In this document: piece by piece, positions 4,853-51,319 of the stretch
How positions within the stretch are numbered: position 1 is the first letter of the stretch
How the letters are laid out: each line of letters begins with the position of its first letter
From: Brucepastera parasyntrophica
Lineage (GTDB): Bacteria; Spirochaetota; Spirochaetia; Treponematales; Treponemataceae
Direction: 5' to 3'
NCBI RefSeq assembly: GCF_022376835.1
Contig: NZ_CP084606.1
Span: forward strand, 2,842,739 to 2,906,738
Length of the DNA stretch: 64,000 nt
Program-made: the position numbers and the translations under genes
Notes under the pieces: generated by a model
What the model saw: only the letters and a program-made list of their open reading frames with translations
What the model was told of the DNA's origin: nothing
Database searches by the model: none

Positions 4853-4860
4853 GGAGGGGA

Positions 4861-10071: not shown

Positions 10072-12531
10072 GTGATAACCGCTCCGGACGGAACCGGGTT
10101 GTCGAAAACAGGCATGGGCTTTGCGGGCTGGAACACAAAGGCCGACGGGACCGGCGTCTCCTATGCGGCGGGCTCAAAGATAAAGATAACGGGAAACCTG
10201 AAACTCTACGCCCAGTGGGCCGGGAACAGTTACACGGTAACCTATGACGGAAACGGCCACACGGGAGGCGCGGTCCCGGCCTCGGCTGACTCGGTGTACG
10301 GGGAAAGCCACAGCCTTGCCGGGCCGGGCGGTCTCGAAAAAACCGGCCACAGTTTCGCGGGCTGGAACACGGAACCTGACGGGAGCGGGACACCGTACCC
10401 CGCGGGGACGGGCGTGACGGCTGACTGGGACGGTCCTGTTACATTATATGCCCGGTGGGTGAGCGGCAACGCTGATTTAAGCAATCTGACGGTAAGTGAA
10501 GGGGCCCTGTCCCCTGCCTTTGACCCTGGCGTCATATCTTACACGGTGGAAGTACCCGACACCACGGACAGCCTGACGGTGACAGGCGCCGCGGCGGACA
10601 GCGGGGCGGAACTCAGCGCGAACAGCGGAGCGCCCCAAACACTGAGCGGAGACAGCACTCCGGTAACAATACGGGTGACCGCGGCGGACGGAAGCATAAA
10701 GGACTACACGGTAACCATAGTCCGGCTCGACACCGCGAAAACCATAACGGGTTTCAGTTTTACCGGACTTGCGGAAGGCAATATAAATGAAAATGAAAAA
10801 ACGGTCACGCTCACAGCGCCGTACGGGACGGCTGTAACAGGCCTCGTACCCGATATAACGCACACCGGTGTGAGCGTGAGTCCCGCGTCCGGCGAAGCGG
10901 AGGACTTTACAAACCCGGTAACATACACGGTGACCGCAGCTGACAGCAGTGCGCAGATCTATACGGTAACGGTGAGCGTCGCCTCCCTTGTGTCGATAAC
11001 TCTGAGCGGCGCATACAAGACTCAATATAAAATTGGTGAAAGTCTTGACACCTCGGGACTGGTAATTACGGGGACGGACAGCGCAGGGAACAGTGTGGCA
11101 ATACCTGCCTCCTCATGCGACTTTACAGGCTTCAATAGCGCGACGACGGGTGAAAAAACGGTGACGGTAACCGTGACGGGTACGTCCGTGACAAAAACTT
11201 TCTCCGTGACCGTGCTGAGCAATAACGCGAACTTAAGCGCCCTGACGGTGAGCAACGGAACCCTGACCCCTGTCTTTGACACGAACACGACAAGCTACAC
11301 GGTGAGCGTGGCGAACAGCGTGACCAGTATAACGGTAACCGGTACAAAAGCCGACAGCACCGCAGGTCTGAGTTCTAACAACGGAGAGGTTCAAACGCTT
11401 TCCTTGGGAACGAATCCCATATCCATAACAGTGACCGCGCAGGACGGAACAACCAAGGTATACACGGTAACGGTGACGAGATCGGTACCCAGTACCAACG
11501 CAAACCTTAGTGGCATATCGTTAACTTCGGGAACCCTGAGCCCTGTGTTTACATCCGATGTACTTAATTATACGGTACGCCTGGCTAACAGCGTGAGCGG
11601 CGTCAGGATAACGGGGATAGCGGCGGACAGTGGGGCTGTTGTGAGTGGCAGCGGCTCAACTGACACGCTTACGGTCGGGACGGCAACGCCCAAAACAATA
11701 ACGGTGACCGCCGAGGACGGTGTGACAACAAAGACCTACACCGTAACGGTGACGCGGCAGGGCAGCGCGAGCCTGAGTGCATTGACAGCCAGTGCGGGTC
11801 AGCTGACTCTGGCGTCGTCGGAAACGAATTTCGCAACTACTGGATTTGCATCGGCAGCACTTGACTATATAGTGGGGATAGCTGGAACAAGCGGTGAAAC
11901 GAAGAGCGTAACGATAAACGCGACATCTGCCAGCGGAACGGTGAGCTATTCGCTTGCCGGAGGAGTCGTAAGTGGAATAAGTCGCGGGAACCCTCAAGCG
12001 CTTGAGATAACGGTAACAAACGGAAGCGAAACTTGCATATACACGGTGACCTGTATGCTTGTCGGCTACACGGGCGAGGCAGGCCTTGTATTCTACGACA
12101 AAGGAAATAGCACCGGAGGCTGGCAATACCTTGAGGCTGCGACTGCGGATGCAGGTACGGCGGAATGGGGCTTATCCGGAGTACGCATAAGCGAAACGGT
12201 GACAAGTATAGGAAGCGGAAAGGGAAACACAGGGATACTGGTGAGTGCGCTTACGGCAGCGGGAGAAAGCGGACGGGCAGCACTGCTGTGTGATGCATAC
12301 AGCGGCGCTGGGAGGACTGACTGGTATATGCCGAGCAAAGACGAGCTTAATCTGATGTACAGTAATCTGCACAAGAACAGCCTGGGCAGTTTTACGAACC
12401 ATGGGTACTGGTCGTCGTCTCAGTACTCTCCTAATGAATACGGCGTAGCGTGGAGTCAGTACTTCAACAGTGGAGACCAGATGGACAACAGGAATATTTC
12501 ATTTTACGTACGGGCCTGCCGGGCTTTTTAA
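10072..12531 (+). CDS. Surface protein body. Flg_new (Listeria-Bacteroides) repeats x2, four cadherin-like beta-sandwich domains (ADLSNLTVSxGxLSPxF...YTVTV.R), and a C-terminal DUF1566 (Lcl-like) domain. The in-frame open reading extends back to 10015, right after the TGA.
   Basis: YTVTYDGNGHTGG / GHSFAGWNTEPDGSG / LYARW motifs. Repeated beta-sandwich modules. WYMPSKDELNLMYSNL DUF1566 motif. Confidence 0.75.
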   Translation: MITAPDGTGLSKTGMGFAGWNTKADGTGVSYAAGSKIKITGNLKLYAQWAGNSYTVTYDGNGHTGGAVPASADSVYGESHSLAGPGGLEKTGHSFAGWNTEPDGSGTPYPAGTGVTADWDGPVTLYARWVSGNADLSNLTVSEGALSPAFDPGVISYTVEVPDTTDSLTVTGAAADSGAELSANSGAPQTLSGDSTPVTIRVTAADGSIKDYTVTIVRLDTAKTITGFSFTGLAEGNINENEKTVTLTAPYGTAVTGLVPDITHTGVSVSPASGEAEDFTNPVTYTVTAADSSAQIYTVTVSVASLVSITLSGAYKTQYKIGESLDTSGLVITGTDSAGNSVAIPASSCDFTGFNSATTGEKTVTVTVTGTSVTKTFSVTVLSNNANLSALTVSNGTLTPVFDTNTTSYTVSVANSVTSITVTGTKADSTAGLSSNNGEVQTLSLGTNPISITVTAQDGTTKVYTVTVTRSVPSTNANLSGISLTSGTLSPVFTSDVLNYTVRLANSVSGVRITGIAADSGAVVSGSGSTDTLTVGTATPKTITVTAEDGVTTKTYTVTVTRQGSASLSALTASAGQLTLASSETNFATTGFASAALDYIVGIAGTSGETKSVTINATSASGTVSYSLAGGVVSGISRGNPQALEITVTNGSETCIYTVTCMLVGYTGEAGLVFYDKGNSTGGWQYLEAATADAGTAEWGLSGVRISETVTSIGSGKGNTGILVSALTAAGESGRAALLCDAYSGAGRTDWYMPSKDELNLMYSNLHKNSLGSFTNHGYWSSSQYSPNEYGVAWSQYFNSGDQMDNRNISFYVRACRAF

Positions 12532-16648: not shown

Positions 16649-18591
16649 ATGGCAAAAGGCGAATTTGAAAGACAGTTTAAGGCTGCCCTCCGGGCCGGTC
16701 AGAAGCGGGATTACCGGCAGGCTATACGCATTCTCGAGTATCTCGCGGCCTGTGGTTTCGCGGAAGGTGACCCCTCCCTGCAGGACGGCGGCCAGTCCCA
16801 TCCCGAAATCTTTTTATATCTGGCCCGTTCATGGCACGCCCAGAAAAAATACGCGAGGGCGGCCGCTTACGCAAGGGCCTTTCTCCGGCGGCGGTCTTCG
16901 GACGCGTCCGGCTGGTTTTTTCTTGCCAGGTCCTATTTTTCAGGCGGGCTGTATGACCGGGCCCTGTACGCCATAAAAAAAAGCCTTGAGCTGAACCCTG
17001 ATTCCGCGGACGCGAGGGGCTTGCTGGGCGCCCTGTATTTAAAACAGAAGAGGTTCCGGCTCGCGCGTTCGGTATTTGAGGACGCCCTTTCCATTGCGCC
17101 TGACGACCCCCGTCTGAACCAGGGATATCTGAACGCTCTTTTTATCGACGCTGTCCGGACTTACAAACGAGGCGGTGCCGAAGAAGCGAGGCAGATGCTT
17201 ACCTTTCTTATCAACAATGGAATAGACGGCGTGGCGCCCCGGCTGTATCTTGCCCACGCGCTCAGGGACCTCGGCTATCTGCCCGAGGCCCTCACCCAGT
17301 ATGAGGCCGCTGTCCAGTTCGCCCCTGACGATACCTCCCTGCTGTGGTATTTTGTATCAATATACCTGATGATGGGAAATACCGAAGAAGCTGTCGCTCT
17401 TCTTGCCTCACTTGACGAGTCCTTTAACCCTGAAGCTATCTCGCAGCGTTTTGTTGATCTGCAGATTATTAAAACCAGCCTTGAAAATGAAAACTGGACG
17501 GGCGCCGCACAGGCGGCCCGGGCTTACATAAAAAACTATGGCAGCGACGGACTGTCGCACGCCCTTATGGGCGAAGCCCAGAGAAATCTCGGAAATAATG
17601 ATATAGCGGTAAACCATTTTAACCGGGCCATCGAACTGGACCGGCAGAACCCCGCGCCCTATTACGGAATCCTGATGGTGTACGCTTCCGCCCGGAACTG
17701 GAAGGAGCTGAAGGCCGCTCTGGCCAGGGCCGACCGGGCCGGCTGTGATCCTTCCGCAATACAGTTTTACCGGGTGCTTGCCGAGGCAAACCTCGATTCC
17801 GATCCCGCTGAGATTTTGCCCGCTGTCCAGGAACAGGTTAAAACCTACGGCGCAGCTCCTCCCTTATTGCTTGCCCTGGCCCGGACCTATTTCCGGATGG
17901 GTCTTTCAGAGCTGGCGATCGGCTGGTACCGGAAAGTAATCGGGTTCGGGCAGAAAAACGAACTCGGAGCCGAAGACCTCGAGGAAGCCTGGCTGGGCTA
18001 TATTGCCTGCTGCGAGGACCAGGCAATGAATGAAGAACTTTCCGAAGCTTACCGGAACTATCTGGACGGCTGGGAAGACAATTCGGATATCCGCAGGGAA
18101 TTTATTTCTTTCCTTGAAAACACCGGCGGCTGGGGCGAGGCCGCGGACCAGCTTGAAAAGCTGGAAGCCTATAATACTTCTTCGGCGAATATCAGAAAAC
18201 TTGCCCTGTACCGGAGGCGGGCGGGGCAGTACCGGACGGCCGCCGTTCTGTACCGCGACATACTGAGAAAGAAGCCCGATGACCGCGCCATTCTCGCGAA
18301 CCTTGTATTCTGCCTTGACCGGATGGGGAGGAGGAATCCGCCCGCCTGCTCATACAGGAAGCTAACCGGGTCCTGAAGCCGGACGCGGACGGGCTTCTGA
18401 TTGAGGGCAGGCTTCATTCACGCTCAGGTGATTTTGACCGGGCCCTCGCGGTGTTTAGAAAAATAATTGACACCTGGCCCAAAGACATACGGGGCTGGGA
18501 AGAAATAGCCCTGGTTTATGAAAAGAAAAATGTCCCCGATATGGCCGCCGTGTTCAGGGAAAAGGCGGCCGGCCTGAAAAAGAAAAAATAG
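16649..18591 (+). CDS. TPR-repeat protein; the frame is broken at a G4 run (18325-18328), with the C-terminal repeats continuing to 18591.
   Basis: Many TPR-like repeats. The downstream frame encodes ...GDFDRALAVFRKIIDTWPKDIRGWEEIALVYEKKN. Confidence 0.7.
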
Positions 18592-20655: not shown

Positions 20656-20727
20656 TAGGAACATAATAATATTGCTTTTTCCCGTATCTGTGTTATAGTA
20701 AATTATATGCAGATACAGGAGGGGTAT

Positions 20728-21405
20728 ATGAAACAGTTTTGTCTTGCGGTCATTCTGGCCGGCATGTGTTTTTTTCCATTGCTCGGCGAAGATGCCGCCG
20801 TTGACGCGGCCGCCACGGACGGAAGTTCATCCGACATAGTTTTTGATATTAACCAGCTGATAAAAAAAGGGCTTTTCAAGAATAAGGACGCGATAGCTGA
20901 AAAGGCCCAGTTTCTTCAGGAAAAAGACCAGCTGTCTCTGATCGCGGATAACAAAAAAAGCGGCGTGGGTCCTTTCTTTCTCAATTTTTTCCTCGGTTTC
21001 GGGATCGGTTCTTTTGTCCAGAAAGACCTTGTAGGCGGGTTTATCATGCTCGGCGCCGATATCGCGAGTATTGCCATGATGATTCCTTTTGTGGTGCATA
21101 TGGGCAGGTTTTTTGCCTATTTCCTGATCCTCCCGGTAATTGCCATGGCGGACCCTGACAGTGATTTGGCAAAAGATTTTTCTGCGGCGGTTGATGACGC
21201 GGCAAAATACAGCGGTTTATTTATTGCCGGAGGTGTTTTAATGCTTGCCTCACGGATTTTTGGGAGCGTAAAACCATGGACACACGCCAGCAAATGGAAC
21301 TCAACATTAAACAGCGCCCTTTCCCAAAAAGCAAAAATCACTATTGGGATCGAACCGGTCATCATGCCTGACCAGTATGGTTTCAAGGTGGCAATACATC
21401 TGTGA
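20728..21405 (+). CDS. Hypothetical membrane protein with a signal peptide.
   Basis: MKQFCLAVILAGMCFF start, then several hydrophobic helices. Confidence 0.5.
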   Translation: MKQFCLAVILAGMCFFPLLGEDAAVDAAATDGSSSDIVFDINQLIKKGLFKNKDAIAEKAQFLQEKDQLSLIADNKKSGVGPFFLNFFLGFGIGSFVQKDLVGGFIMLGADIASIAMMIPFVVHMGRFFAYFLILPVIAMADPDSDLAKDFSAAVDDAAKYSGLFIAGGVLMLASRIFGSVKPWTHASKWNSTLNSALSQKAKITIGIEPVIMPDQYGFKVAIHL

Positions 21406-22771: not shown

Positions 22772-22867
22772 TTATTCGGGGCGAAGGTAATGATTTAACG
22801 GCCGCTTGCGCGGCCTGCGAATACCCCAGACCGAAGGTCTGCCCTGCTCCGCGGCGGGGTATTTTAT
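22772..22867 (+). repeat. Structured intergenic repeat, copy 1 (short form lacking the UUCG-hairpin module).
   Basis: TTATTCGGGGCGAAGG ... GGCCGC-ttgc-GCGGCC ... CAGACC-gaag-GGTCTG ... GGGGTATTTTAT. Confidence 0.7.
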
Positions 22868-22945
22868 CGCAGTTTCTGTAATTATAACCCATTTTTGCCG
22901 ATCCGCAAGTCTATCCTTTCCTTTTATAAAGAATAAACTCCATAT

Positions 22946-23067
22946 TTATTCGGGGCGAGGGTTTAATCAGCCTTCGGCTGGTTCTGTAAGGAAATGATTT
23001 AATGGCCGCTTCCGCGACCTGCGAATACCCCAGACCGAAGGCCTGCTCTGCGGCGGAGTATTTTATT
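22946..23067 (+). repeat. Structured intergenic repeat, copy 2 (full form).
   Basis: TTATTCGGGGCGAGGGTTTAATCAGCC-ttcg-GCTGG...GGAGTATTTTATT. Confidence 0.7.
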
Positions 23068-23143
23068 GCGCCGGTGTTTTTCCTGCTGTATACTGAAGTA
23101 TCCGGTTCTTTCCGGACAGCAATATTTTTACTGGAGTATACAT

Positions 23144-24126: not shown

Positions 24127-24150
24127 GTGGAACCGACTGACAGTCGGTTC
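24127..24150. terminator. Bidirectional terminator hairpin between convergent genes.
   Basis: Perfect ggaaccgactg / cagtcggttcc 11-bp stem. Confidence 0.5.
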
Positions 24151-24167
24151 CATTTGCGGACACAGTT

Positions 24168-25322
24168 TCAGAACCTCATTCTGAGTTTCGCGGTGATTTC
24201 AAAGCTGGTATCGGTCGAATCAGGTCCGAGTTCCCCGTGTTTTTCGTTCCCGGAAAAGGTGTCACGGTCAAGCGGTACGCGTCCCGTAAAGCTCAGGGTC
24301 GCTCCCTGAAAAAGATCATGCTCAAACCCGATAACAGGCGAAAAGGAAATATCATCGAGCCCCGCTACGCAGGAAAGGCTGGCGTTCGTATAATCATTAA
24401 ACCGGTACATCAGCATCGCGTACAGGTAATTTCTTTTTTCATAAACGGCTGATGAAAATGATTTTTTTCCGCTGAAAAAATATTCAGCCAGAATATACAG
24501 GCTGCCGTCAAAAAAGGAATAATCAAAGCCCGCGCTTGCCGCGATTCCGTCAAAGCCCGCGCGGTCGCGGTTATCGTACATATAGAAAACTTCCGCGGTG
24601 AGGCCAAGTTCCACTTCCGCCTTTACCGAAAGGCCCGCGTAATGCAGTCCGTCCGGAGTTTCCGCTTTTGGAATTTCATAAGTGTATAGCAGCTGAACAC
24701 TTGCCCTGTCCCAGTGTTTGTCGCCGGACAGGCCGAACAGCGCTCCGTTGCCGTCCTGTTCAAACGCGTTCTTCGGGGCGGCTGCAAAGGCCTGTATTTT
24801 TGAAGTATCGGAAGGATACAGCGAAACTGAGCTTCCGAGGATTGCGCGCGGCCGCGCGTCCGGGTGGAGCGGATTTCTCGGATTCAGAAAATCAGACGGA
24901 CCCCATACCTGTCCGTATCCGAAGGCAAGCCGCATGAGGCCTGCCTCGACATCAAGCAGTTCGCTGTTTATTCTGAAGTAGAGGCGTTCCAGCTCGAGCG
25001 CGGCAATATAGTTTTCTCCTCCGCTGAACGCCGTGAGGGGCAAAGAGTGCGCCGGCGAGTTATTCAGCATTGAAGCGACAAGGGCCGTGCTGCCCGCCGC
25101 TGCGGTCAGATTGAATGAAGTGAAAACCGAGGCGCGCTCGCCGACATTCACCTTCAGGCGGAGATTCGCATATTCTTCAGCGCCGAATCTGATCTCGGAC
25201 GGATCGCTTCCGCCGGCAAGCGTGAGTTTTGTATCAAGCAAGCCTGACAGGACAGGCGCCTGAGCGAAAACCTCCGCGGACAGACAGAGAAGCAGCAAGA
25301 GCAGAAGCGGCGTTTTTTTCAT
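24168..25322 (-). CDS. Putative outer-membrane beta-barrel protein.
   Basis: Signal peptide MKKTPLLLLLLLCLSAEVFA. C-terminal ...LRMRF (terminal Phe). 4-bp overlap with the upstream LolA-like gene. Confidence 0.55.
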   Translation of the reverse strand: MKKTPLLLLLLLCLSAEVFAQAPVLSGLLDTKLTLAGGSDPSEIRFGAEEYANLRLKVNVGERASVFTSFNLTAAAGSTALVASMLNNSPAHSLPLTAFSGGENYIAALELERLYFRINSELLDVEAGLMRLAFGYGQVWGPSDFLNPRNPLHPDARPRAILGSSVSLYPSDTSKIQAFAAAPKNAFEQDGNGALFGLSGDKHWDRASVQLLYTYEIPKAETPDGLHYAGLSVKAEVELGLTAEVFYMYDNRDRAGFDGIAASAGFDYSFFDGSLYILAEYFFSGKKSFSSAVYEKRNYLYAMLMYRFNDYTNASLSCVAGLDDISFSPVIGFEHDLFQGATLSFTGRVPLDRDTFSGNEKHGELGPDSTDTSFEITAKLRMRF

Positions 25323-26070
25323 CGTTCAAGATTCCTCATGCTGAAAACGGAATCGGAAATGGGTTCATCAAGAAGAATGCTGTTCATGACAAAGGTTGTT
25401 TTGCTCCCCTTGCGGAGAAGGTCGCGCATTTCAGATTCTACCGGGAACCGGCGGCCGCCGAAGTTTTCCGCCCGGATCAGTGTATATTCTTTCAGCTTTG
25501 CTCCCGAGAGCGCGTACAGTTCATAATGCAGGAGATCAAAATTTTCCTTGTCAACCCAAAGCTTCTGTTTGGGATAACTCTCCGTTTTTTTCTTCGCGGT
25601 CAGATCAAGTACCCAGACTTCCCTCCCGTTCCATGTTTCGCTTCCGCTTAAAACGGGAGTATAGCGGTCCGAGAGTTTTTCATTATTGATCGTATCCTCA
25701 TAGGAGAGGTCTGAGCCCATCATTGATTCCTTGAGCATGTGTCCCGATATGAGCATAACCTGCTCATTATCCGGCGAGTATACATACAGGCGCCCGCCCT
25801 TTTTGAGATATTTGGTGCCCCTGTCTTCCGGGTTTGTGAATTCGATAAAGCTGTCGGAATTACCCTTTGCTGATGCCTTCATTTTTTTTACATAGGTTTT
25901 ATTCTGATATTCAATTATCATCTCGCCTTCATACTGAATAGTGTCATATACTTCATTATCATCAATTTTTTGAGAATATCCGGCGCTGATAAATTCTGCT
26001 GTCCAAAAAGGTGAAAAACTGAAACGGCGGCGAGAGAGAGTAATACTGCAATGCAGATGTTTTTTTTCAT
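25319..26070 (-). CDS. LolA-like outer-membrane lipoprotein-sorting protein. The frame is broken at a T6/A6 run (25966-25971); the signal-peptide exon lies at 25970-26070.
   Basis: AGGAGG RBS plus MKKNICIAVLLSLAAVSVF. Restoring one A yields ...ILKKIDDNEVYDTIQYEGEMIIEYQNKTYVKK. Confidence 0.6.
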
Positions 26071-26188
26071 TGAAAATACCTCCTGTATTTTTCTGCAGGG
26101 AGTTTTAATTCCCGTATTATATAATGCAATAGTTCAAAGACACCTGTCTTCTGAATTGTATTCCCTGCGTATTCAGCGGTCTGTCCGC

Positions 26189-27724
26189 TTACATCAGGGG
26201 CGCGAAGATGCGCAGTACATCCTGAAGCAGCCGCGGAAAAAAACTGCTTTTGCAGTCCTGTTCGGTAATCTGATGGCATTTTTCAAGAGTCAGCAGAAAA
26301 TCATCCTTTACTTCCATTACCGATGAAGTTTTATACATCCATACTCCGCATTCAAAATGCAGATACAGACTCCTGAAATCAAGATTTGTCGTTCCTACTG
26401 TCGCAACAGTATCATCTGAAACAAAAGTTTTTGAATGAATGAACCCGTCCGTGTATTCATATATTTTGACGCCCGCCTCAATAAGGTCCCTGTAGTAAGA
26501 CCGTGTTGTGATATGAACAATGCGTTTGTCCCAGCGGTGGGGCGTAACAATCCTCACATCGACACCGCTCTTTGCCGCAAGCCGCAGGGCCGAGAGCATA
26601 CTGTTATCTATTATGAGGTAGGGTGTGTTTATATACACATACTTTTTTGCCGTGTTTATGATCTGCAGATATACGTGTTCGCCGACATTTTCCGTGTCCA
26701 TCGGACTGTCAGCGTAAGGCTGGACAAGGCCATCAGCGGAAACCGTACATTCTTCTTCCTTCCAGGGATAGTATTTTGAATAATCTTCCGTATCAGGTGT
26801 GCTTAAGTCCCACATTTGCAGGAACATGAGAGTTAGGCTCCACGCGGCTTCGCCCGTTATCATTATTGAGGCGTCTTTCCAGTGGCCGTGTTTGTCTATC
26901 GCGTTTATATATTCATCGGCAATGTTTATGCCTCCGGTAAAAGCCACCTTTCCGTCGATTGACGCGATTTTTCTGTGGTCCCTGTTATTCTGCTTGGTTG
27001 TCAGAAAAGGTTTGAATGGGTTGAACGCGATGCACTGTATTCCCAGGCTCTGCAGTTTTTGCGGGTACTTATGAGGAAGATCAAAAAAAACTCCGACGTC
27101 ATCATACATTACCCTGACTTCCACGCCGTTCGCGGCCTTTTCCTTAAGTATATCAAGGATCGCGTTCCACATGATGCCTTCCCTGATAATAAAGTATTCA
27201 AGGAAAATATATTTTTCAGCCTTTTTCAATTCTTCGAGCAGATATTCAAATTTCATTTCACCCGGCGTCAGATATTTTGTCGCGGTGCGGCTGTATATGG
27301 GAAAGCCGGCAAAATCCTGCAGGTACCGTATCTGGGGAATATGCTCGGGGGCGTCCCTGCAGGCTGTTTCAAAATGGTTGCCCGGAAGCAGAAAGCGGTC
27401 CCTGCTTTGCGATTCGATGACAGCGAGCTTCTTTTCAAACTTTTTTGTAGAAGTCTGCGCGGTAAAAAAAAGATAAAACAGCCCGCCGAATATCGGAAAA
27501 AGCAGGATGAGGAAAACCCAGGTCAGTTTGTATGCGTCCTTGTCCCTTTTGTTTATTATATACAGCGCGACCAGAACACTGAGTAGAGAGAGAGCCCATC
27601 CGATGAGTTCGGAACTTCTGCTTGTGCTGATTATTGCGTACACGAGAAAAAGCGCCTGCAGGACAATCAGAAAGGCAATAAATAATTTTCTCCGGCAGAA
27701 TAATTCCGATTTTCGATTTTTCAT
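26189..27724 (-). CDS. cls: Cardiolipin synthase.
   Basis: Two N-terminal TM helices and two HKD motifs (DHRKIASIDG...; IHSKTFVSDD...). Confidence 0.85.
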   Translation of the reverse strand: MKNRKSELFCRRKLFIAFLIVLQALFLVYAIISTSRSSELIGWALSLLSVLVALYIINKRDKDAYKLTWVFLILLFPIFGGLFYLFFTAQTSTKKFEKKLAVIESQSRDRFLLPGNHFETACRDAPEHIPQIRYLQDFAGFPIYSRTATKYLTPGEMKFEYLLEELKKAEKYIFLEYFIIREGIMWNAILDILKEKAANGVEVRVMYDDVGVFFDLPHKYPQKLQSLGIQCIAFNPFKPFLTTKQNNRDHRKIASIDGKVAFTGGINIADEYINAIDKHGHWKDASIMITGEAAWSLTLMFLQMWDLSTPDTEDYSKYYPWKEEECTVSADGLVQPYADSPMDTENVGEHVYLQIINTAKKYVYINTPYLIIDNSMLSALRLAAKSGVDVRIVTPHRWDKRIVHITTRSYYRDLIEAGVKIYEYTDGFIHSKTFVSDDTVATVGTTNLDFRSLYLHFECGVWMYKTSSVMEVKDDFLLTLEKCHQITEQDCKSSFFPRLLQDVLRIFAPLM

Positions 27725-27745
27725 AGTTCGCTCCGATTAAACAAT

Positions 27746-29019
27746 TCAGCGCCTCAGGGCTTCCACCGGTTCAATAAAGGCGCTTTTCAGGGAGGGGATT
27801 ATTGTACATATCGCTGAAATAATCACACCGAAAAGAAATCCCTGTACAATATATACCGGCGAAAAATTGAGAAAGATAGTTCCCGCCATCGGGAATTCCT
27901 TTAAGCCTCCGCCGGTGAACGTGTCAAAACTGATCGGGAAGAATGACCCGATCCAGGTAGAAAGACCCCCGACAATACAGCCGGCCAGAGAACCTATTAT
28001 ACTGAGAAACACAGCTTCAAAAAAGAATACCATAACAATTTCCGATCGTGTCATCCCGAGGGCTCCCATCATTCCAATTTCCTTGATCCGTTCATGGATT
28101 ATCATAACCACCGTATTTATTATCAGGAAACTTGCGACAATCTGAAATACCAGGAAGATGATAACAAAAATAATTGTACTCTGCTGCATTACGACAACCC
28201 AGTAATTATCCTGCCATTCCCTTATAACATTGCCGTCCCCCAGCAGGGCTTTTACCTTTCCGGCAATATTTCTTGTATCCTTTTCATTGTCGGCATATAT
28301 GAAAAGCTGCTGGGTACCTTCATCAAGAACAAGAAGTTTCTGAAGACGGTCAAAGGATACCATGATTACCTGTTCGTCATATTTGCGGTAATCGTATTCA
28401 AAAATCCCCACAATTTCAGGGCTCCAGTATTTATCGGAAAACTGGGCGGACACTACTTTGAGCGGGATTCTGTCGCCTATGGCGAGCCCCGCTTTTTTTG
28501 CCATATAAACACCAATCGCGCATTCATTGCTTCCTTTTTGCGGGTATCTTCCGGTCACAAGACCATCGCTCCTGTCAGTCAGATTGAAATTATTGATTTC
28601 TTTTTCGCGGTCTATATCGATTCCCCATAAAAACGCGTGTTTGATTAAACTGTCGGACAGGGTAGCGTAGGCGTTGATTCTCGGAAGAACTGCTTTTACT
28701 CCGGGAACAGCTTCTATTTCCCGGATCAATTCTCCGGTACTCCTTCCGTCAGCTACCGGAAACTGGACAGGATAGTATTCCTTGTCTTCTTCGAACAGCG
28801 ATGATACTACATTCACATGGCCTGTGTCAAAAACACGGACAACATCTTCAATTCCTTTTATCATTCCGTCCATCATCGATTGCATAAATATATTGAAGAA
28901 AACAGCGATACCAACGGCAGCGATGCAGAGAATAGTCCGGCGGAGGTTCCTCCAGATATTTCTGTATGCTATTTTTTTCAGGGTCAGAAACCCGCCTCTC
29001 TTTTTTTTGAAAGTTCCAT
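27746..29019 (-). CDS. Type-VII ABC transporter permease (FtsX/MacB/LolC-E-like). The frame is broken at a T8/A8 run (29001-29008); the N-terminal TM helix is encoded upstream of the track ORF.
   Basis: AGGAG RBS plus ATG 29019. The +1 frame gives FLTLKKIAYRNIWRNLRRTILCIAAVGIAVFF. The C-terminal FtsX 3-TM bundle is present. Confidence 0.7.
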
Positions 29020-29036
29020 ACTATACTCCTGATATA

Positions 29037-30775
29037 TCAGTCAAACCGCAGACTGTCCGTGACCGGCATTTTTAACGCCCGCCTGGTCGGGAAAAACGCC
29101 ATAGCAGATGACAGCAGCGTCGCTACTATACCCGTACCGATAATGACGGGGACATTCCACGCCGCCCTGAAATAGGACGCTACCCGGTAACCGAAATCTC
29201 CGCCGGCTTCCATCGTAATCGAAGAAAAGTCCAGACCGTATTTGACCATTGGTATATTAATCAGACAGCCTATAATTACTCCGGCGATCGATCCGAGTAA
29301 TCCTGCGGCCCCCGCCTCAAGCATATAAGAAAGGAGAAGCTGACCGTCAGTCATTCCAAGGGCTCTCAGCATCCCGATTTCCCTGGTCCGTTCCAGTATA
29401 GCCATGAGCATGGTATTCGCTATTCCGATAAAGGAGAGAATGAACAGAAGAATAATCATAAGCTGTGTGGAAACCGCGTCGGCATTTGATACCGCGAGAT
29501 AATCCGCCGCGTAATCCTTCCAGCCGTAAACGCCGAGTTCGGAAGGAAGTGTCCGCCCTCTGTCAGCGAGTCCGGAGACAAGGGCCGCCTGCACAGCCCC
29601 AGGGGACTCCTTTTTACCGGGGAGGGATGCGTCGTTTGCCCCTTTTTCACGGATGAGCAATTCAGTGATATGCCCTTCAAGCATGAGGCCGGCCTCATCC
29701 TGCAACACATTAAGCGGAAGATATCCGACATTGGCGTTGTTTTTCGGGTTCGGTGAATTTATGACCCCGACAACAACCGCATCGACCAGCTGATTGACAT
29801 GCCTGACCGCCCCGGAATAATCAGCCCTGATCATTATATCGAGGATTTTTTCAGGAAGGCCTCATCTTCATTTACAAGATAAAAATCCCCGGTCAGCGGG
29901 TCCTGTTCATATGCGGATAAAATTGTGCGTAATTCATCCGGCGTTACTATTTCCGAAAGATCGTTTTCTATTTTTTCACTGCGCAGGACTTCCGGCGCCG
30001 CTTTTATATCAATGACGGTTGAAATCCGTACATCCATCCGTCCGCCTTCCGCGAGTATATTCCAGAAGCGGTTGAGATCGGCGGCGGAAACCGTCTCCTT
30101 CAGGATAAAGCGTTCTTCAATGTTTTCAGACGGATCTTCTTTTTGCGCAAAAAATTCCATGCCTTTTTTTCTTGAAGACGCAGGCTCATAGAGCGACAGG
30201 ATAAAATCGCGTTCTTCCTGATCCCTCGCGTAATTCAGAATATCCGTTTTCAGTTCACTTTCCGCCGGACGCTGGGGAATTCCTGTTTTCAGTTTTTCGG
30301 CGGCCATTGTTCCGAGCGCAATTTCAAAACCGTCCGGCTCGATAAAACGTCCGGATTCCATATAGTTTGCGTAACGTAAAAGTCTTATCTCCGCTTCCGG
30401 ATCGACCGCGTTGAATTCCATCGGCGCGGACCCGGTCGCCGAATAAAGGGTTCCGGTGAATACAAACCGGGGCGCGGAATCGTAACCTTTTTCATTCAGG
30501 ACTTCGGCATAGGTTTCCCAGCCTGAAAAATTTTCATACATGGGAAGATCATCCTTTTTTTCAAAATACAAATGGGTTTGTATTTTATCGGCCCCGATTT
30601 CATAACTCACAATATTGCGTTCCGAGTCAAGATTGATCCCCAAAAGCCAGCCGTCCACAAAAATATACATGGATACACTGATTGCTATTGCCAGAGTGGT
30701 AATAACCGTTTTAACCCGGTGACGGGAAAGATTACGGAAAGCCATTCCTGCAATGGAAAAAAATGATGTTTTCAT
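29037..30775 (-). CDS. Second type-VII ABC permease with a long periplasmic domain. Split into two track ORFs by a frame change at a T6/A6 run (29846-29851).
   Basis: N-terminal TM and MacB_PCD domain (30775..29834). Restoring one A reads ...LKKILDIMIRADYSGAV... into the FtsX C-terminal half. Confidence 0.65.
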
Positions 30776-31457
30776 TACCTGACTGTCTCCGACTCGACTT
30801 GTCCGTCCCTGAGCATAATAATACGCCGGGCGTAATCCATAACCATCTGATCATGGGTGGAAAATATAAAGGTGGTCCCCGCGCTGCGGTTTAGATTAAG
30901 CATGAGTTCAAGGATTTCCTTTCCTGTTGTTGAATCAAGATTTGCGGTCGGCTCATCCGCGAGAATGAGCGCCGGCTTTTTTACCAGTGCCCGCGCAATA
31001 GCGACACGCTGCTGCTGCCCGCCCGACATTTCCTTTGGCCGCCGGTTTTCCATTCCTTCTAGTCCGACATCCCTGAGCGCTGCCATGGAGCGTTCTCTGA
31101 TTTCATGTTTATCAAACCCAAGCAAAACAAGCGGGAAGGATATGTTTTCCAGAACAGACAAAACGGGAATCAGGTTATAAGCCTGAAAGATAAAACCGAT
31201 ATTGTTCCGCCGTATCAGCGCAAGTTCCTTTTTACTGAGCGAGGCTATATCCGTTTCCTCAATGAGAATGGAACCTGAACTGAGCGCATCAAGGCATCCG
31301 ACGAGGTGCAGAAAAGTTGACTTTCCGCTTCCTGAGGGCCGGCGATTGCGGAAAATTCTCCCGCTTCAAAACCGAGATTTACTCCCCTCAGCGCGTGTAC
31401 GGTTATTCCATTCAGACTGTAATCCTTGACCAGATTATTCGTTTTTACAACAGTCAT
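30775..31457 (-). CDS. ABC transporter ATP-binding protein (MacB/LolD-type). The frame is broken at a G3/C3 run (~31336-31338).
   Basis: The Walker A GPSGSGKST is recovered after the frame correction. Signature LSGGQQQRVAIARAL; Walker B ILADEPT. Confidence 0.75.
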
Positions 31458-32548
31458 TCCTGTTCTCCTTTCTTTTCCTTTTCTTTTTTCAGTTCCGAAA
31501 GAGCCTGGAGGCCGAAAATATCATTTGCCTGCAGTTCCTCGGTAATTGAATTGGGTACCAGCATCATGGAATTGCCTGCTTTCAGTCCCTCATTCAGTAT
31601 TGAAAGAATCTTCAGTTTCATGGCTGGTTCGTTCTTCGAATATATTTTGACAGCTTCCTCTAGTCTGTTCGCTATCTGGATTTCGGCTTCCGCGAGCAGG
31701 ATGCGGCTGTTTTTCTCCCGTTCCGCCTGGGCCAGCCTGCTCAGGGAATCCTGCAAATGTTCCGGTATCTGGATATCGGTAATTTCAATATGCTGCACGG
31801 TAATACCCCATTCAGTTGTTTTTCCGTCAACATCGGTTCTGATCTGTTTTTCAATTACATCTCCCCGTTCCAGAAAGGTGGAAAGATCGTGACTGCTGAT
31901 GGCATTGCGGAGGGCTGTTTTTGAAGAGAGAATTACAGCTTCCTCGTAATTCTGTACTTCGCAGACCGCCTTTTCCGGATCCCATACCAGCCAGAAGCAT
32001 ATCGCGTCAACAGTTACTGTAACCGAATCCCGGGTCAGGGTTTCCTGCGCAGAGAAATCAGTTACACGTATGCGGAGGTCAACAATTTTCGCGACACGGT
32101 CCGCAACCGGAATAAGAAAAAACAGGCCGGGGCCTTGTATGCGGTGAAAGCGTCCGAACCGGAGTACAATGGCCCGTTCCCATTCTTCCATCTTCTGTAT
32201 GGATGGAGCAATAAGAACAGCCGCCGCCGCGAAGAGGAGGGTAAGCGCCAGCTGCGGGACCGCGCATACTGCAAGCACACAGGCCGCAATAATGCATATT
32301 TTTATCGCGGCCGCCCAGCGTGAAAAAAGCACCATCAGGAGAAGGGCCGCGACAGGGACCCCCAGCAGTAATCCGAAATCTATTAACGGCGGCAAGGCCC
32401 CTGTCAAAAGCAGAACAATAACGGAAAAACTGATAAACAGTATAAACAGGATTATTCCAGCGGCATTGATTGAAAAATCGCTCCGCCGTTTTGTATATTT
32501 TGAATCCTTGATTCGCGGTTTATCATTATTTTTTTTCTGTGGTTCCAT
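31454..32548 (-). CDS. SPFH/band-7 (stomatin/prohibitin-like) membrane protein.
   Basis: Four N-terminal TM segments plus an SPFH domain (IVLRFGRFHRIQGPGLFFLIPVADRV). ATGA overlap with the ATPase gene. Confidence 0.7.
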   Translation of the reverse strand: MEPQKKNNDKPRIKDSKYTKRRSDFSINAAGIILFILFISFSVIVLLLTGALPPLIDFGLLLGVPVAALLLMVLFSRWAAAIKICIIAACVLAVCAVPQLALTLLFAAAAVLIAPSIQKMEEWERAIVLRFGRFHRIQGPGLFFLIPVADRVAKIVDLRIRVTDFSAQETLTRDSVTVTVDAICFWLVWDPEKAVCEVQNYEEAVILSSKTALRNAISSHDLSTFLERGDVIEKQIRTDVDGKTTEWGITVQHIEITDIQIPEHLQDSLSRLAQAEREKNSRILLAEAEIQIANRLEEAVKIYSKNEPAMKLKILSILNEGLKAGNSMMLVPNSITEELQANDIFGLQALSELKKEKEKKGEQE

Positions 32549-32549
32549 A

Positions 32550-32948
32550 CTATTCCTCCTTAAAGTTTTTTATAAGGCTGACCGCTTCCGCGCGTTCAAC
32601 GCCAAGTTCTTCCATGTCTGTGACAAACCGGGCGACAATTTCCCTTATCCGCCGGTTTCTTCCGTCATCTTCAAGCACGGGCCGTTTATCTGAAATGTAG
32701 GTGCCGCTGCCGACCTGGGTTTCCAGAATTCCCCTGATCTCCAGTTCCCCGTACGCTTTTGCGATAGTATTCGGATTGATCTTCAGTTCGATAGCCAGCG
32801 CCCGGATGGTGGGGAGCCTGTCCCCGGTTTTCAGCCGTTCGGACAGGATAGCGTGTTCGATCTGCTGAATAATCTGCCGGTATATCGGCACCCCGTTTGA
32901 CGGGTCCAGAGTAAATGTAATTTCTCTGTTTATGATTGTACTATTCAT
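32550..32948 (-). CDS. GntR-family (YtrA-subfamily) transcriptional regulator.
   Basis: wHTH PIYRQIIQQIEHAILSERLKTGDRLPTIRALAIELKINPNTIAKAY. The short length is typical of YtrA. Confidence 0.8.
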   Translation of the reverse strand: MNSTIINREITFTLDPSNGVPIYRQIIQQIEHAILSERLKTGDRLPTIRALAIELKINPNTIAKAYGELEIRGILETQVGSGTYISDKRPVLEDDGRNRRIREIVARFVTDMEELGVERAEAVSLIKNFKEE

Positions 32949-32978
32949 CTAGTACAATCATAAATGCACTAGTACAAT
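32933..32978. promoter_or_regulatory. GntR operator: perfect palindrome TGATTGTACTA-N6-TAGTACAATCA spanning the gntR start codon, plus a third half-site TAGTACAAT at 32970-32978.
   Basis: Read directly from the sequence. Confidence 0.6.
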
Positions 32979-33075
32979 ATGTCAATATTTTTTTTAAAAA
33001 AAAATTAAATAAATATTGAGCTGATGCGTAAAATCCGGGAAGTCATACAGGAAAATATATGGTTTTACCTCATGT

Positions 33076-33198
33076 TTATTCGAGGCGAGGGTTTAATCAG
33101 CCTTCGGCTGGTTCTGTAAGGTATGTAATGGCAGCTTCCGCGACCTGCTAATACCCCGGACCGAAGGTCTGCCCTGTTCTGCGGCGGAGTATTTTATT
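33076..33198 (+). repeat. Structured intergenic repeat, copy 3 (full form).
   Basis: TTATTCGAGGCGAGGGTTTAATCAGCC-ttcg-GCTGG ... CGGACC-gaag-GGTCTG ... GGAGTATTTTATT. Confidence 0.7.
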
Positions 33199-39500: not shown

Positions 39501-39559
39501 ATTCCGGTAACCGGCTGAAACAGATTGCCTGAGAATAACCGCAGGACAGGGAGGCTGAA

Positions 39560-40928
39560 ATGAAAGTAGTAATTATCGGCGCAGTCGCGGGCGGCACGAC
39601 TGCCGCGACAAAGATAAGGCGGAATGACAAGTCCGCTGAAATTATTCTTTTCGAACAGGATGGGGATATTTCATATTCAGCCTGCGGCATACCGTATTAT
39701 GTGGGGGAGAAATCCCCAAAGCCGAATCCCTGACTCCCCGGGGTCCCGCATGGTTTAAGGACAAATATAATATTGATGTCCGTATTTTTCACCGTGTGAC
39801 CGCAATACATCCCGATAAAAAAACGGTTGAGGTTCTTAATCTTAAGACCGGTGAAAGCAGTACGGTTTCGTATGATAAACTCATTTTTTCAACCGGAGCC
39901 CTGCCGGTCATTCCCGCTCCGTTCGCAACGGCGCTTGACGCCGGAAACATATTTACGGTCAGAACGATCAGGGACGCGGTAAAAATACGGACTTTCATAA
40001 CGGAGTCAAAACCGGAACGCGCCGTTATAATCGGGGCGGACTGATAGGACTCGAAATGGCGGAGCAGCTGAGAAAACTGGATATTGATGTCACTCTGGTA
40101 CAGTGGCACCCTCATATATTATATCAGATGGATGAAGATATGATCCTGCCCGTGCAGTATGAGCTTGAACAGCATGGCGTTCATCTGAAACTCGCGACTG
40201 AAGTGACCGGATTTCAGCGGGGCCCGGGCAATAATATACATATTCTGGAAACGGCCGGGGGAGAAAAACTGGAAGCAGACATGGTCCTTCTCGCCGCGGG
40301 AGTTCGTCCGAATACGGAACTGACCGTAGGCACCGGCATTAAGACAGGTGTGACTGGTGCCGTAAAAGTTGACGCGTATATGAGAACAACTGTTCCGGAT
40401 ATTTATGCTGCCGGTGATGTAGCGGAGAGTTTTTCGGTTATCACGGGCAAGGCTGTTTACCGTCCCCTCGGAACAACGGCCAATAAAACAGGACGGATAG
40501 CAGGGGATGCTGTGACAGGCGGCGGTCTCAAACACCGGGGGGTACTGGGTACCGCAATTGTCCGTGTGTTCGGCATTACTGTTGCGTTTACCGGACTGAA
40601 TGAACGTGAGGCTGCTGACCACGGTTATGACTGTATCAGCAAACGCGATACCTATCCCGATCACGCTCCCTATCTGGGCGGCGAAAATATGGTGGTAAAA
40701 ATTATCGCGGATAAAAAATCCGGCCTTGTTCTCGGCGCCCAGATTACCGGAAGGGCAGGGGTGGATAAACGTATCGATGTGCTGGCTACAGCCATTACTT
40801 ACAGGGCCCGCGTCGAAGACCTGTTTCATCTTGACCTTGCCTATTCCCCTCCCTATTCAATTGTAAAAGATCCCATTCAGTATGTAGGCATGGCTATGGA
40901 AAAACAAATCCAGGGAAAGAATTCATAA
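39560..40928 (+). pseudogene. CoA-disulfide reductase / NADH oxidase (pyridine nucleotide-disulfide oxidoreductase) broken into three ORFs by single-base deletions in G runs (39703-39707 and ~40038).
   Basis: MKVVIIGAVAGGTTAATKIRR...CGIPYYVGG | EIPKAESLTPRGPAWFKDKYNIDV... | GLIGLEMAEQL... The C-terminal dimerisation domain is intact. Confidence 0.7.
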
Positions 40929-44077: not shown

Positions 44078-44214
44078 TTATTCAAGGCGAGGGTTTAATC
44101 AGCCTGCGGCTGGGTCTGTAAGGTATGTAATGGCCGCTTCCGCGGCCTGCGAATACCCCAGGCCGAAGGTCTGCAGCTCTTCGAGCTGACTGCTCTGCGG
44201 CGGAGTATTTTATT
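44078..44214 (+). repeat. Structured intergenic repeat, copy 4 (full form plus an extra hairpin CAGCTCttcGAGCTG).
   Basis: TTATTCAAGGCGAGGG...GGCCGC-ttcc-GCGGCC...CAGGCC-gaag-GGTCTG...GGAGTATTTTATT. Starts 4 bp after the upstream stop and overlaps the stop of 44210..45121. Confidence 0.7.
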
Positions 44215-48617: not shown

Positions 48618-49528
48618 ATGTTCAGTGACACGCACTGCCATCTTACCTATATAAAAGACAGGGGCGAAAATATTTCTCCGCACATATCGGAAATGAAAAA
48701 GGAATCTTTCCGTTTTGTTCAGGACATAGGAACAAAGCCGGGAGATCTGCAGCCGCGGATCGAAACCGTTATTAATGAAGCGGGGGAAATTCCCGGGTTT
48801 CTGCATTTTTCCTGCGGACTCTGGCCTGCCGCGGATATAATTGCGGACCGTGACAATTCACTTTTTCTTCTTGAAGAGGATATAAAGATTCTGACCGGAA
48901 AACAGAAGGCTGCGGTTCTCGGTGAATGCGGACTTGACCGTTACTGGAACGGTCCTCCGGCAGCTGAAAGAATCGCCGCCCTGCGGAATAGCGGCGGAAC
49001 TTCTCCGGACGATGACGGTCCCGGGACAACCGATATAAAAGGAGAGGAAGATCTTTTCGGACGCCAGCTTGATTTGGCTCGTAAATATGATATCCCAGTG
49101 ATTATCCATTCCCGGGACGCCTTTGAGCCGACATATGAAATAATAAAAACGCAGGCTATGACTGCGGGGTAATACACTGTTTCAGTTATGGGGTTGCCGA
49201 GGCGAGGGCCTTCCTTGATCGGGGCTGGTATATTTCTTTTCCAGGGAATATTACCTGGCCAAAAAAAGAAGCTGACAAAGGCCGGGTTTCTTCCCTGCTC
49301 AGGTTTGTTCCCCGCGACAGGCTTCTCCTCGAAACCGATGCTCCATATCTCACGCCGAACCCCTTCCGGGGTAAACCGAATACGCCTCTGTTAATCAGAT
49401 ATACATATGCCTGCGCCGCCGATATTCTCGGTATAACAATAGAAAGGCTCGCGGATATTGTATATGAAAATGCCTGCGGCCTGTTTTTAAAGCAGAGCTG
49501 TACTGAACCAGGGAACATACGTAATTAG
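48618..49528 (+). CDS. tatD: TatD-family metal-dependent hydrolase. The frame is broken at a G4 run (49166-49169).
   Basis: N-terminal MFSDTHCHL. After the correction, ...HCFSYGVAEA...PRDRLLLETDAPYLTPNPFRGKPN. Confidence 0.7.
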
Positions 49529-51316: not shown

Positions 51317-51319
51317 AAA

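Follow-up and report, generated by a model that had tools for sequence, protein, structure and literature searches.

What does an operon do that joins parts resembling the lipoprotein-export machinery of diderm bacteria to a GntR-type regulator, an SPFH protein and a cardiolipin synthase? The question is raised by a 64,000-nucleotide stretch of contig NZ_CP084606.1 (hereafter the window) from Brucepastera parasyntrophica, a treponeme of the termite-gut lineage, in which eight co-oriented minus-strand genes at 24168-32948 are packed as a single operon. They encode the GntR-type regulator (gntR), the SPFH/band-7 protein, an ATP-binding cassette (ABC) ATPase of type VII, two FtsX permeases (perm1 and perm2), the cardiolipin synthase (cls), a LolA-like carrier and an outer-membrane protein (OMP). 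Our answer, which we hold to be somewhat better than an even bet, is that the operon is an inducible, accessory Lol-like shuttle that exports hydrophobic cargo across the envelope, and is neither the housekeeping Lol pathway nor a unit linked to cls. The gene set goes beyond chance: its order recurs in dozens of species.

Operon structure and conserved gene order

All eight genes lie where a sequence-only reading of the window had placed them, and Pfam and NCBIfam matches agree with the names it gave them (Table 1). The OMP product is 100% identical to the deposited K7I13_13620 of B. parasyntrophica. Reading the junctions confirmed both overlaps that had been described, an ATGA between the SPFH and ATPase genes and another, of 4 bp, between the LolA-like and OMP genes. 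The ATPase gene and perm1 overlap by 1 nt; the remaining gaps measure 1-21 nt, except for the 118 nt between cls and the LolA-like gene. The single strong promoter lies 5' of gntR, and a terminator-like hairpin starts 17 nt past the OMP stop codon. The eight genes form one operon. A promoter-like site within perm2 (28801-28830) was taken as chance, the count of such sites being about that expected in shuffled sequence.

Scanning genomes with an OMP alignment returned 80 loci, nearly all from termite-gut Treponema and Breznakiellaceae, with a few Fibrobacterota bins. Open reading frames (ORFs) at each locus were searched with the cluster proteins, and the denominators below count loci with enough flanking sequence. 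A LolA-like gene lies directly 5' of the OMP gene at 69 of 73 loci. Further upstream are perm2 (55/59), perm1 (46/49) and the ATPase gene (41/44), followed at lower frequency by the SPFH gene (25/36) and gntR (24/34). The core order ATPase-perm1-perm2-LolA-like-OMP is conserved across 79 related loci. Among more distant spirochete loci found through perm1 homologues, two have the same seven genes (L083 and L085 in our locus numbering) and a third has the five-gene core without GntR and SPFH (L082). Of the synteny across Spirochaetia on which the sequence-only reading had staked its case, the LolA-like part holds and the cls part does not. Two observations on copy number belong here: the metagenome-assembled genome (MAG) Kf353_bin129 has two diverged copies of the module (L047 and L049), and contig BNUT01000001.1 has identical inverted copies (L008 and L009), maybe an assembly palindrome.

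From the cls linkage a unit for coordinated envelope remodelling had been suggested, with joint action of cardiolipin synthesis and transport and with the SPFH protein in the role of a periplasmic adaptor. The gene is a sound ClsA-type synthase (364.9 bits against a TIGR04265 cut-off of 290; PLDc_2 and PLDc each match two stretches). It is embedded between perm2 and the LolA-like gene, with gaps of 21 and 118 nt and its own ribosome-binding site, and is hence co-transcribed here. None of the 79 related loci has a Cls hit, so a remodelling unit is not indicated. Elsewhere the same slot holds unrelated passengers, a Fic-like gene in L083 (10607-11272) and an SDR gene in L089 (13226-14134). Operon junctions in other species contain Fic-like genes, PIN/VapC or HicAB toxin-antitoxin genes, SDR genes and long tandem repeats (Table 1), and these boundaries apparently accept insertions, of which cls is one. 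The gene is a lineage-specific passenger, co-transcribed in Brucepastera but outside the system.

The role proposed for the SPFH protein fares no better. It matches PF01145 (120.7 bits, model positions 3-175 of 176), with the HflK and HflC equivalogs under their cut-offs. A very basic N-terminus is followed by ~90 hydrophobic residues that we read, from hydropathy and charge, as four transmembrane helices. The N-terminus is predicted to be inside and the SPFH domain cytoplasmic, which would leave it no stand-in for a periplasmic adaptor. About 30% of spirochete loci lack the gene, as does every Bacteroidota module examined, and it seems dispensable to the module. Synteny has already largely refuted the remodelling-unit view, and we consider it extremely unlikely.

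The module also occurs outside the spirochetes. A tblastn search of plasmid records with the carrier found a Persicobacter megaplasmid (37% identity) with the order TetR, 381-aa signal-peptide protein, ATPase, FtsX, FtsX, LolA-like. Searching with the 381-aa protein returned 3775 relatives in Flavobacteriia, Cytophagia, Saprospiria and Bacteroidia. Loci from Maribacter, Lentimicrobium, Portibacter and Tenacibaculum have an OMP of the 381-aa type beside ABC, FtsX, FtsX and PF17131 genes, usually with a TetR gene. In the Bacteroidota core the OMP gene stands at the front and TetR is adjacent at four of five loci (L087, L088, L089, L092, L093); four of these are complete and L092 is cut at a contig end. 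Single-sequence comparison of the Persicobacter and spirochete OMPs is weak (21.8%). The two families align by hhalign at 95.6% (E 1e-8, 301 columns), with their most conserved segment in register, and on this profile alignment we regard them as homologous. The carriers of the two phyla match at 1e-46 to 1e-52, and the permease permB pairs best with perm2.

Related versions lie on proteobacterial plasmids. Ralstonia plasmid pB1901 (L091) encodes, in this order, a carrier, an ATPase, a fused double permease (830 aa) and a protein of 381 aa with an L3-like motif, RIGRQRIAWGTGRFWSPLDLLNPLNP; the link of this last protein to the OMPs is weak, a shared motif only (23%), and is taken as a lead only. 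An E. coli IncK2/Z plasmid (NZ_CP060058.1, 18404-22238; L090) has ATPase, FtsX and PF17131 genes inside a ketosynthase/crotonase cluster. The 399-aa protein encoded after its carrier gene was tried as an OMP relative and rejected (3% probability, relation undetectable). The occurrence of the core in two phyla, in shuffled order and under different repressors, suggests an old, mobile functional unit controlled differently by lineage. It is also widespread, with dozens of termite-gut treponeme species and the 3775 Bacteroidota OMP matches. Flavobacterium johnsoniae LolA3 (Fjoh_0605), described as having a longer C-terminus, a more polar cavity and a patchy distribution (PMC11885536), is a candidate and may be the carrier of a Bacteroidota version.

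Components and control

Two different four-helix FtsX permeases and one ATPase gene make up the same complement as LolCDE. The sequence-only reading had likened the set to LolCDE plus LolA; the parts and the probable logic support this, and the curated LolD, LolC/E and LolA families do not. The repaired ATPase scores 223.6 bits with the LolD model TIGR02211 (cut-off 307.75) and 201.6 with PRK11629 (cut-off 360). DarD, DevA, FtsE and MacB models score it about as well. Its class is that of a generic type VII nucleotide-binding domain. With the LolC/E model TIGR02212 (cut-off 362.45), perm2 reaches 115.7 bits and perm1 44.9. Among solved proteins, perm2 is closest in sequence to LolF (2e-16) and LolC (8e-11), then to YtrF, LolE and MacB. 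For perm1, sequence matches cover the membrane region only and are led by YtrF (1e-9); a modelled perm1 homologue, P0122 (predicted local distance difference test score, pLDDT, 77), superposes best on LolE, Spr0695 and LolC.

Periplasmic domains of 200-300 aa had been expected of both permeases, which is right for perm2 (~225 aa, MacB_PCD-type) and too low for perm1 (~385 aa). The perm1 domain has two nested, size-variable, well-folded inserts (~70 and ~60 aa) where LolC carries the hook hairpin and perm2 a putative counterpart, and insert size ranges from 0 to ~140 aa. At the sequence level, perm2 aligns with LolF across the hook region and is ~5 residues shorter. The permeases are nearest to Lol-type, not MacB-type, structures, yet far under the LolCDE family cut-offs. 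The sequence-only reading had named conditions for its own refutation; between the conserved LolA-like synteny, the missing cls synteny and these Lol-type neighbours, the outcome is mixed.

The carrier matches PF17131 (LolA_like, TP_0789-like) over the whole model (173.4 bits, 1-184 of 184; gathering score 30). Its N-terminus, MKKNICIAVLLSLAAVSVFHLFG-QQ as read from the repaired gene, is a signal peptide. It is not a member of the LolA family PF03548: only PF17131 matches, and the NCBIfam model LolA1_Flavo gives 25 bits against a cut-off of 100. Its solved relatives are 3buu, 4z48 and 3bk5. From these matches we place the carrier within the LolA superfamily, though not as a canonical LolA.

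The OMP was modelled as an 18-stranded beta-barrel (pLDDT 74) of the porin/OprD/AlgE structural class. Its fold is that of the 18-stranded OprD/Occ, AlgE and MOMP channels, at 8-15% identity to the structural matches, and no Pfam or NCBIfam hit to OprD, Alginate_exp or porin families was obtained at E <= 0.01. The most conserved stretch, G128-R159 (RLxFGYGQVWxPSDFLNPRNPLxPDARPR), forms the long loop between strands 5 and 6 (residues ~131-160). Judged by its position in the model, this loop may occupy the place of the porin constriction loop L3. The expectation that no periplasmic adaptor is encoded was borne out: neither the operon nor the window ORFs scanned include a membrane-fusion protein (MFP) domain or a TolC-like gene, and the OMP itself is not TolC-like. 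A TolC encoded at a distance may still serve the transporter.

An operator overlapping the gntR start codon had also been proposed, and it is strongly supported. We aligned the upstream regions of 25 distinct orthologous loci as a phylogenetic footprint. They share TTGACA, a 17-nt spacer and a TAnnAT -10 element, followed by a near-invariant TGTACTAGATGAATAGTACA. One putative operator, O1, lies in the spacer; several relatives have it as the perfect 12-bp palindrome TGTACTAGTACA, and the Brucepastera window has it with one mismatch. The other, O2, has the form TGATTGTACTA-N6-TAGTACAATCA, and in essentially every locus aligned the ATG of its spacer lies in the gntR reading frame. The -10 element ends 8 nt 5' of this ATG, a spacing that implies a leaderless or nearly leaderless gntR transcript.

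Two loci that lack gntR and SPFH, L018 (~4455-4550) and L071 (~3010-3100), have the full promoter and both operators directly 5' of the ATPase gene. In L071 the gntR ATG is replaced by ATA within the retained operator. Retention of the site without gntR supports an operator role independent of coding, and supports the reading of the ATG as a start codon where gntR is present; it also implies control in trans at these two loci. Other loci without gntR (L037, L048, L057, L065) bear different palindromes, such as ATTGTTCTAT-N4-ATAGAACAAT. The regulator itself consists of a winged helix-turn-helix (PF00392, residues 23-85 of 132) and a ~45-aa C-terminal tail, with no effector-binding domain. It aligns at full length with the Rv1152 (8-116 of 120) and PmtR (6-117 of 125) models, below both equivalog cut-offs. 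Fold, short tail and a palindromic predicted operator at its own promoter are all consistent with the YtrA subfamily. YtrA-type repressors govern stress-induced ABC operons, and YtrA itself controls one of type VII (PMC12772383).

Proposed function and alternatives

The gene content and operon structure, the conserved synteny and operators, and the fold classes were observed; to these the following scheme adds a transport direction, hand-over steps, a repressor function, an SPFH topology and a cargo class that we infer. Two ATPase copies and a perm1/perm2 heterodimer would form a type VII ABC transporter. ATP-driven motion of the large periplasmic domains would pull a hydrophobic or amphipathic cargo from the outer leaflet of the inner membrane and pass it to the soluble periplasmic carrier. 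The carrier would deliver it to the dedicated 18-stranded barrel, whose conserved L3 loop may form a specific passage into or across the outer membrane. The YtrA-type GntR, encoded first in the operon and made from a leaderless message, would shut the single promoter by binding one palindrome in the -35/-10 spacer and the other where transcription starts and its own start codon lies. Expression would remain silent until the cargo or envelope stress, as the probable signal, frees the repressor. The SPFH protein would be an optional scaffold on the cytoplasmic membrane face, cls a passenger, and the frameshifts described below most likely assembly errors.

We favour this inducible, accessory export because of the parts list, the cross-phylum linkage, the lack of MFP and TolC-like genes in the operon and scanned ORFs, and the repressor gating. 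Unrelated one-component repressors, GntR and TetR, gate the module in two phyla, by analogy a kind of control typical of efflux or stress operons. The paralogous copies in one MAG (L047, L049) and the passengers tolerated at junctions likewise support an accessory role. Cargo candidates are a hydrophobic xenobiotic, a lipid or glycolipid, and a subclass of lipoproteins. Every characterised type VII ABC system acts with a periplasmic partner on extracytoplasmic substrates (PMC12646458).

Several points weigh against export by such a shuttle. The OMP model is of moderate confidence, and the conserved loop is its least confident part. We know of no LolA-type carrier that hands over to an 18-stranded porin-like barrel. 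The LolA-like and OMP genes are tightly coupled in translation, which might point to a stable outer-membrane complex and not to a shuttle. The SPFH topology is a prediction from hydropathy and charge only, and neither the spirochete nor the Bacteroidota modules have biosynthetic genes linked to them. If the frameshifts were real, the system would be dead in this strain. Deletion of F. johnsoniae lolA3, the candidate member named above, gave no gliding or type IX secretion phenotype (PMC11885536).

If the operon were instead the housekeeping LolCDE-LolA pathway for lipoprotein sorting, with the OMP as the missing LolB-like acceptor, one would expect what is seen in outline: one ATPase, two different permeases whose nearest solved relatives are LolF, LolC and LolE, a LolA-superfamily carrier, and a phylum in which LolB is lacking (PMC11326224). 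The LolD and LolC/E scores given above speak against it, as does a carrier of PF17131 that also falls short of LolA1_Flavo, and at the place that corresponds to the LolC hook perm1 has inserts that vary in size. The operon is also repressor-gated, duplicated in one MAG and variable in composition. Homologues of canonical LolA are reported from across the spirochetes, Treponemataceae among them (PMC11326224), which argues that the operon is not the housekeeping pathway. We judge housekeeping sorting very unlikely.

Specialised biogenesis is another reading: a defined class of lipid-anchored molecules, for instance surface lipoproteins or glycolipids built on diacylglycerol, would pass through the barrel to the cell surface. 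The outer-membrane translocation step of surface lipoproteins in spirochetes and Bacteroidota is, to our knowledge, not known, and the module is abundant in exactly these two phyla, which are known for surface-exposed lipoproteins. Its parts are Lol-like, and a similar role has been proposed in silico for Borrelia BBJ23-29 (PMC13078400). Control by a YtrA-type or TetR-type repressor is nonetheless unusual for a biogenesis pathway, an 18-stranded porin-class barrel with an L3 constriction is not obviously passable by a lipoprotein, and related modules occur on Ralstonia plasmids. The lack of a gliding or type IX secretion phenotype on lolA3 deletion would also tell against it, if LolA3 is a member (PMC11885536). 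We regard this reading as unlikely. Uptake of a hydrophobic nutrient would run the same parts in reverse, from outer-membrane channel to LolA-like binding protein to ABC transporter. Barrels of the specific-channel class are usually importers, and a periplasmic carrier with an ABC transporter superficially resembles a binding-protein-dependent importer. We know of no type VII system that acts as an importer, and by fold class both permeases are four-helix FtsX cores without a substrate channel. FtsEX-EnvC, LolCDE-LolA, MacAB-TolC and YbbAP-TesA act outward or mechanically, and none is described as an importer (PMC12646458). Uptake seems barely credible to us.

A decaying pseudogene array is the remaining alternative. 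Compared with intact Breznakiella homolactica orthologues, the ATPase, perm1, perm2 and LolA-like genes each hold exactly one frameshift, a single-base deletion in a homopolymer that one added base repairs. Four of the five core genes are thereby broken, one of them inside the ATPase Walker A, and the local density of four per 8.8 kb exceeds the window mean of about one per 8 kb. The deposited annotation lists a 313-aa perm1 fragment as a protein of its own (K7I13_13645), and the frameshifts are therefore in the public assembly. Against decay, the disrupted genes have no other defects and are as well conserved as intact ones (65-86% against 58-76% identity to Breznakiella; 80% for the repaired ATPase, 86% for the repaired LolA-like protein). 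At least four further -1 homopolymer deletions occur in three other, unrelated conserved genes of the window (nox-like, TPR and TatD; Table 1), and all eight share the one signature, typical of long-read consensus error. Because of this shared signature and the otherwise good conservation of the disrupted genes, we think assembly error quite probable and a genuinely dead system doubtful. A naive homopolymer merge scan for frameshifts was much too noisy; a codon-usage frame plot was insensitive, yet pointed to extra frameshifts later confirmed by reading translations. ORF pairs at 13.0-13.8 kb and 35.8-36.5 kb gave no evidence of split genes.

On the most far-reaching reading, the five-gene core would be a fifth type VII ABC architecture, hitherto unrecognised: a 'shuttle-and-gate' route by which a cargo that is lipid-anchored or strongly hydrophobic travels from inner membrane to cell surface. 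This is a long shot. In its boldest form, some surface lipoproteins or glycolipids of spirochetes and Bacteroidota would owe to the core the step across the outer membrane for which a route is still missing. If hydrophobic toxins are exported, the module would be an efflux design without a duct. If lipids or lipoproteins are moved, it would bear on outer-membrane building in bacteria that are poor in lipopolysaccharide or rich in surface lipoproteins. Genetically tractable Flavobacteriia carry the module. For the Brucepastera genome itself, a misleading cls association is removed and homopolymer indel errors are flagged.

The rest of the window has features of its own. A dispersed ~130-nt intergenic repeat with two short GC-rich hairpins, CAGCCTTCGGCTG and CAGACCGAAGGTCTG, resembles repetitive extragenic palindromic (REP) elements, and its copies flank a segment with a DUF4349 gene and the operon. 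The 946-aa product of 54163-57003 (-) consists almost wholly of ankyrin repeats (Ank_2, 417 bits). Such a protein is unusual in a free-living bacterium and may be linked to the gut or protist habitat. Consecutive ORFs of 626, 883 and 1125 aa at 66-8226 (+) have no Pfam match, the last two overlapping by 4 bp, and are followed at 10072-12531 (+) by a protein of 819 aa whose domains are Cadherin-like, Big_3, Listeria-Bacteroides repeat and Lcl_C; together these may be a surface or adhesin locus. The operon at 49487-53351 (-) encodes a tripartite ATP-independent periplasmic (TRAP) transporter made up of DctP, a DctQM fusion and a T-component of the TatT type (PF16811), like TatT of T. pallidum. 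At 20707-21405 (+) is a gene whose product matches the P13 family of Borrelia membrane proteins.

Table 1. Genes, control sites, frameshifts and other features; positions are those of the window, or of the named locus for junction insertions.
Feature	Position	Strand	Description	Evidence
Promoter, sigma-70-type	32957-32985	-	TTGACA, 17 nt, TATGAT	best match in region, 11/12 positions
Putative operator O1	32965-32976	-	TGTACTAGTGCA, within -35/-10 spacer	alignment of 25 upstream regions
Putative operator O2	32933-32960	-	TGATTGTACTA-GATGAA-TAGTACAATCA; covers transcription start region, includes gntR ATG	
gntR	32550-32948	-	predicted YtrA-subfamily GntR, 132 aa	PF00392 9e-17; full-length matches to Rv1152 and PmtR models
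SPFH/band-7 gene	31454-32548	-	stomatin-like membrane protein, 364 aa	PF01145 9e-35
ABC ATPase gene	30775-31457	-	type VII (MacB/LolD-class), 227 aa once repaired	
perm1	29037-30775	-	FtsX permease 1, 579 aa once repaired	PF02687; four transmembrane helices
perm2	27746-29019	-	FtsX permease 2, 424 aa once repaired	PF02687 and MacB_PCD
cls	26189-27724	-	cardiolipin synthase, ClsA type, 511 aa	TIGR04265
LolA-like carrier gene	25319-26070	-	250 aa once repaired; type I signal peptide	PF17131 5e-51, 173 bits
OMP gene	24168-25322	-	384 aa; signal peptide; C-terminal Phe	without Pfam match
Terminator-like hairpin	24129-24151	-	GGAACCGACT-GTC-AGTCGGTTCC and T-rich tail	read from sequence
ATPase frameshift	31336-31338	-	CCC, inside Walker A	
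perm1 frameshift	29846-29851	-	A6	
perm2 frameshift	29001-29008	-	in or near A8	
LolA-like frameshift	25966-25971	-	A6	
CoA-disulfide/NADH-oxidase-like gene	39559-40928	+	two -1 deletions: G5 near 39703; GG in GGGGCGGACTG near 40033	
TPR gene	16649-~18590	+	one -1 deletion at ~18325-18345	
tatD	48471-~49560	+	one -1 deletion, A5 run near 49145	
REP-like repeat copies	22793-22867, 22941-23071, 33071-33197, 44091-44123		last copy partial, after gene ending 44074	
Junction insertions	L003 6616-7326, L003 8561-9135, L011 4074-4865, L007 1760-2436		gaps in L018, L030, L037, L065, L014	

Comparison with known systems

The closest published analogue is the BBJ23-BBJ29 cluster on lp38 of Borrelia burgdorferi, for which it was proposed in silico that a non-polar ligand is exported (PMC13078400). 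Its barrel is of Omp85 type without POTRA domains, where ours is of the 18-stranded porin/OprD/AlgE class, and it has one permease modelled as a homodimer, two TPR proteins and no GntR or SPFH. The Brucepastera operon has none of the Omp85-type barrel, TPR chaperones or single permease of that cluster. A family link was dropped, the carrier giving no Borrelia match at E <= 1e-3 by tblastn against the plasmid collection.

LolCDE-LolA(-LolB) of E. coli, and LolDF elsewhere, resemble the module in several ways: one ATPase gene stands with two different FtsX permeases of four helices each, whose periplasmic domains are of Sabre/Porter type; the soluble carrier comes from the LolA superfamily; and the solved structures nearest to both permeases are Lol-type. 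Extraction from the inner membrane followed by hand-over to a carrier is probably the common logic. The module differs in scoring below the LolD and LolC/E cut-offs, in a carrier of PF17131 and not PF03548, and in its hook regions, where perm1 has an insert of up to ~140 aa and the perm2 hairpin is ~5 residues shorter than that of LolF. At the outer membrane LolB is a lipoprotein, whereas the partner here is an 18-stranded barrel; and LolCDE-LolA is housekeeping, whereas this operon is repressor-gated.

With MacAB-TolC the module shares the type VII ABC fold and a substrate taken from the periplasmic side. T. pallidum offers a treponeme precedent for a heterodimeric permease in its MacB-type pump TP0962-0964, with MacA TP0965 and TolC-like TP0966-0969 (PMC8407342). 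Here the ATPase is a polypeptide of its own, neither the operon nor the window ORFs scanned gave an MFP or OEP domain, and a soluble carrier and porin-like barrel stand in place of the membrane-fusion adaptor and TolC-like duct. B. subtilis ytrGABCDEF and S. aureus PmtR-pmt likewise have a YtrA-subfamily GntR autorepressor first in an ABC operon, and YtrF, of the type VII ABC YtrE/YtrF, is the best solved sequence match of perm1. Inhibitors of the lipid II cycle induce the ytr operon, and so does cold shock (PMC12772383). Both operons belong to monoderm hosts and have no carrier or outer-membrane part, and ytr has extra ABC-2-type subunits.

The carrier family also has precedents with other energy sources. 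T. pallidum TP0789, the namesake of PF17131, adjoins the AcrB-like TP0790 (PMC8407342). LolA-like proteins lie beside MMPL/RND exporters in P. gingivalis PG1175-81 and P. intermedia operons, with TetR control in Bacteroidota (PMC10434189). LolA2/LolB2 of the flexirubin locus place LolA-like proteins in outer-membrane-localised lipid and pigment pathways, for which a hydrophobic non-protein cargo was proposed (PMC11885536). Like the present operon, the MMPL/RND systems pair a carrier of the same family or superfamily with an inner-membrane exporter and, in Bacteroidota, with a one-component repressor; they are energised by MMPL/RND and not by a type VII ABC. We know of no homologous porin-like OMP reported for these or the flexirubin systems.

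E. coli YbbAP-TesA resembles our scheme in that a type VII ABC draws hydrophobic compounds out of the inner membrane and a dedicated periplasmic partner receives them (PMC12646458). Its partner is a lipid hydrolase, its double FtsX permease is fused, and it has no outer-membrane component. Set beside FtsEX-EnvC, LolCDE-LolA, MacAB-TolC and YbbAP-TesA, the Brucepastera module would represent a new pairing, absent from all four, of a Lol-style carrier hand-off with a dedicated porin-like channel.

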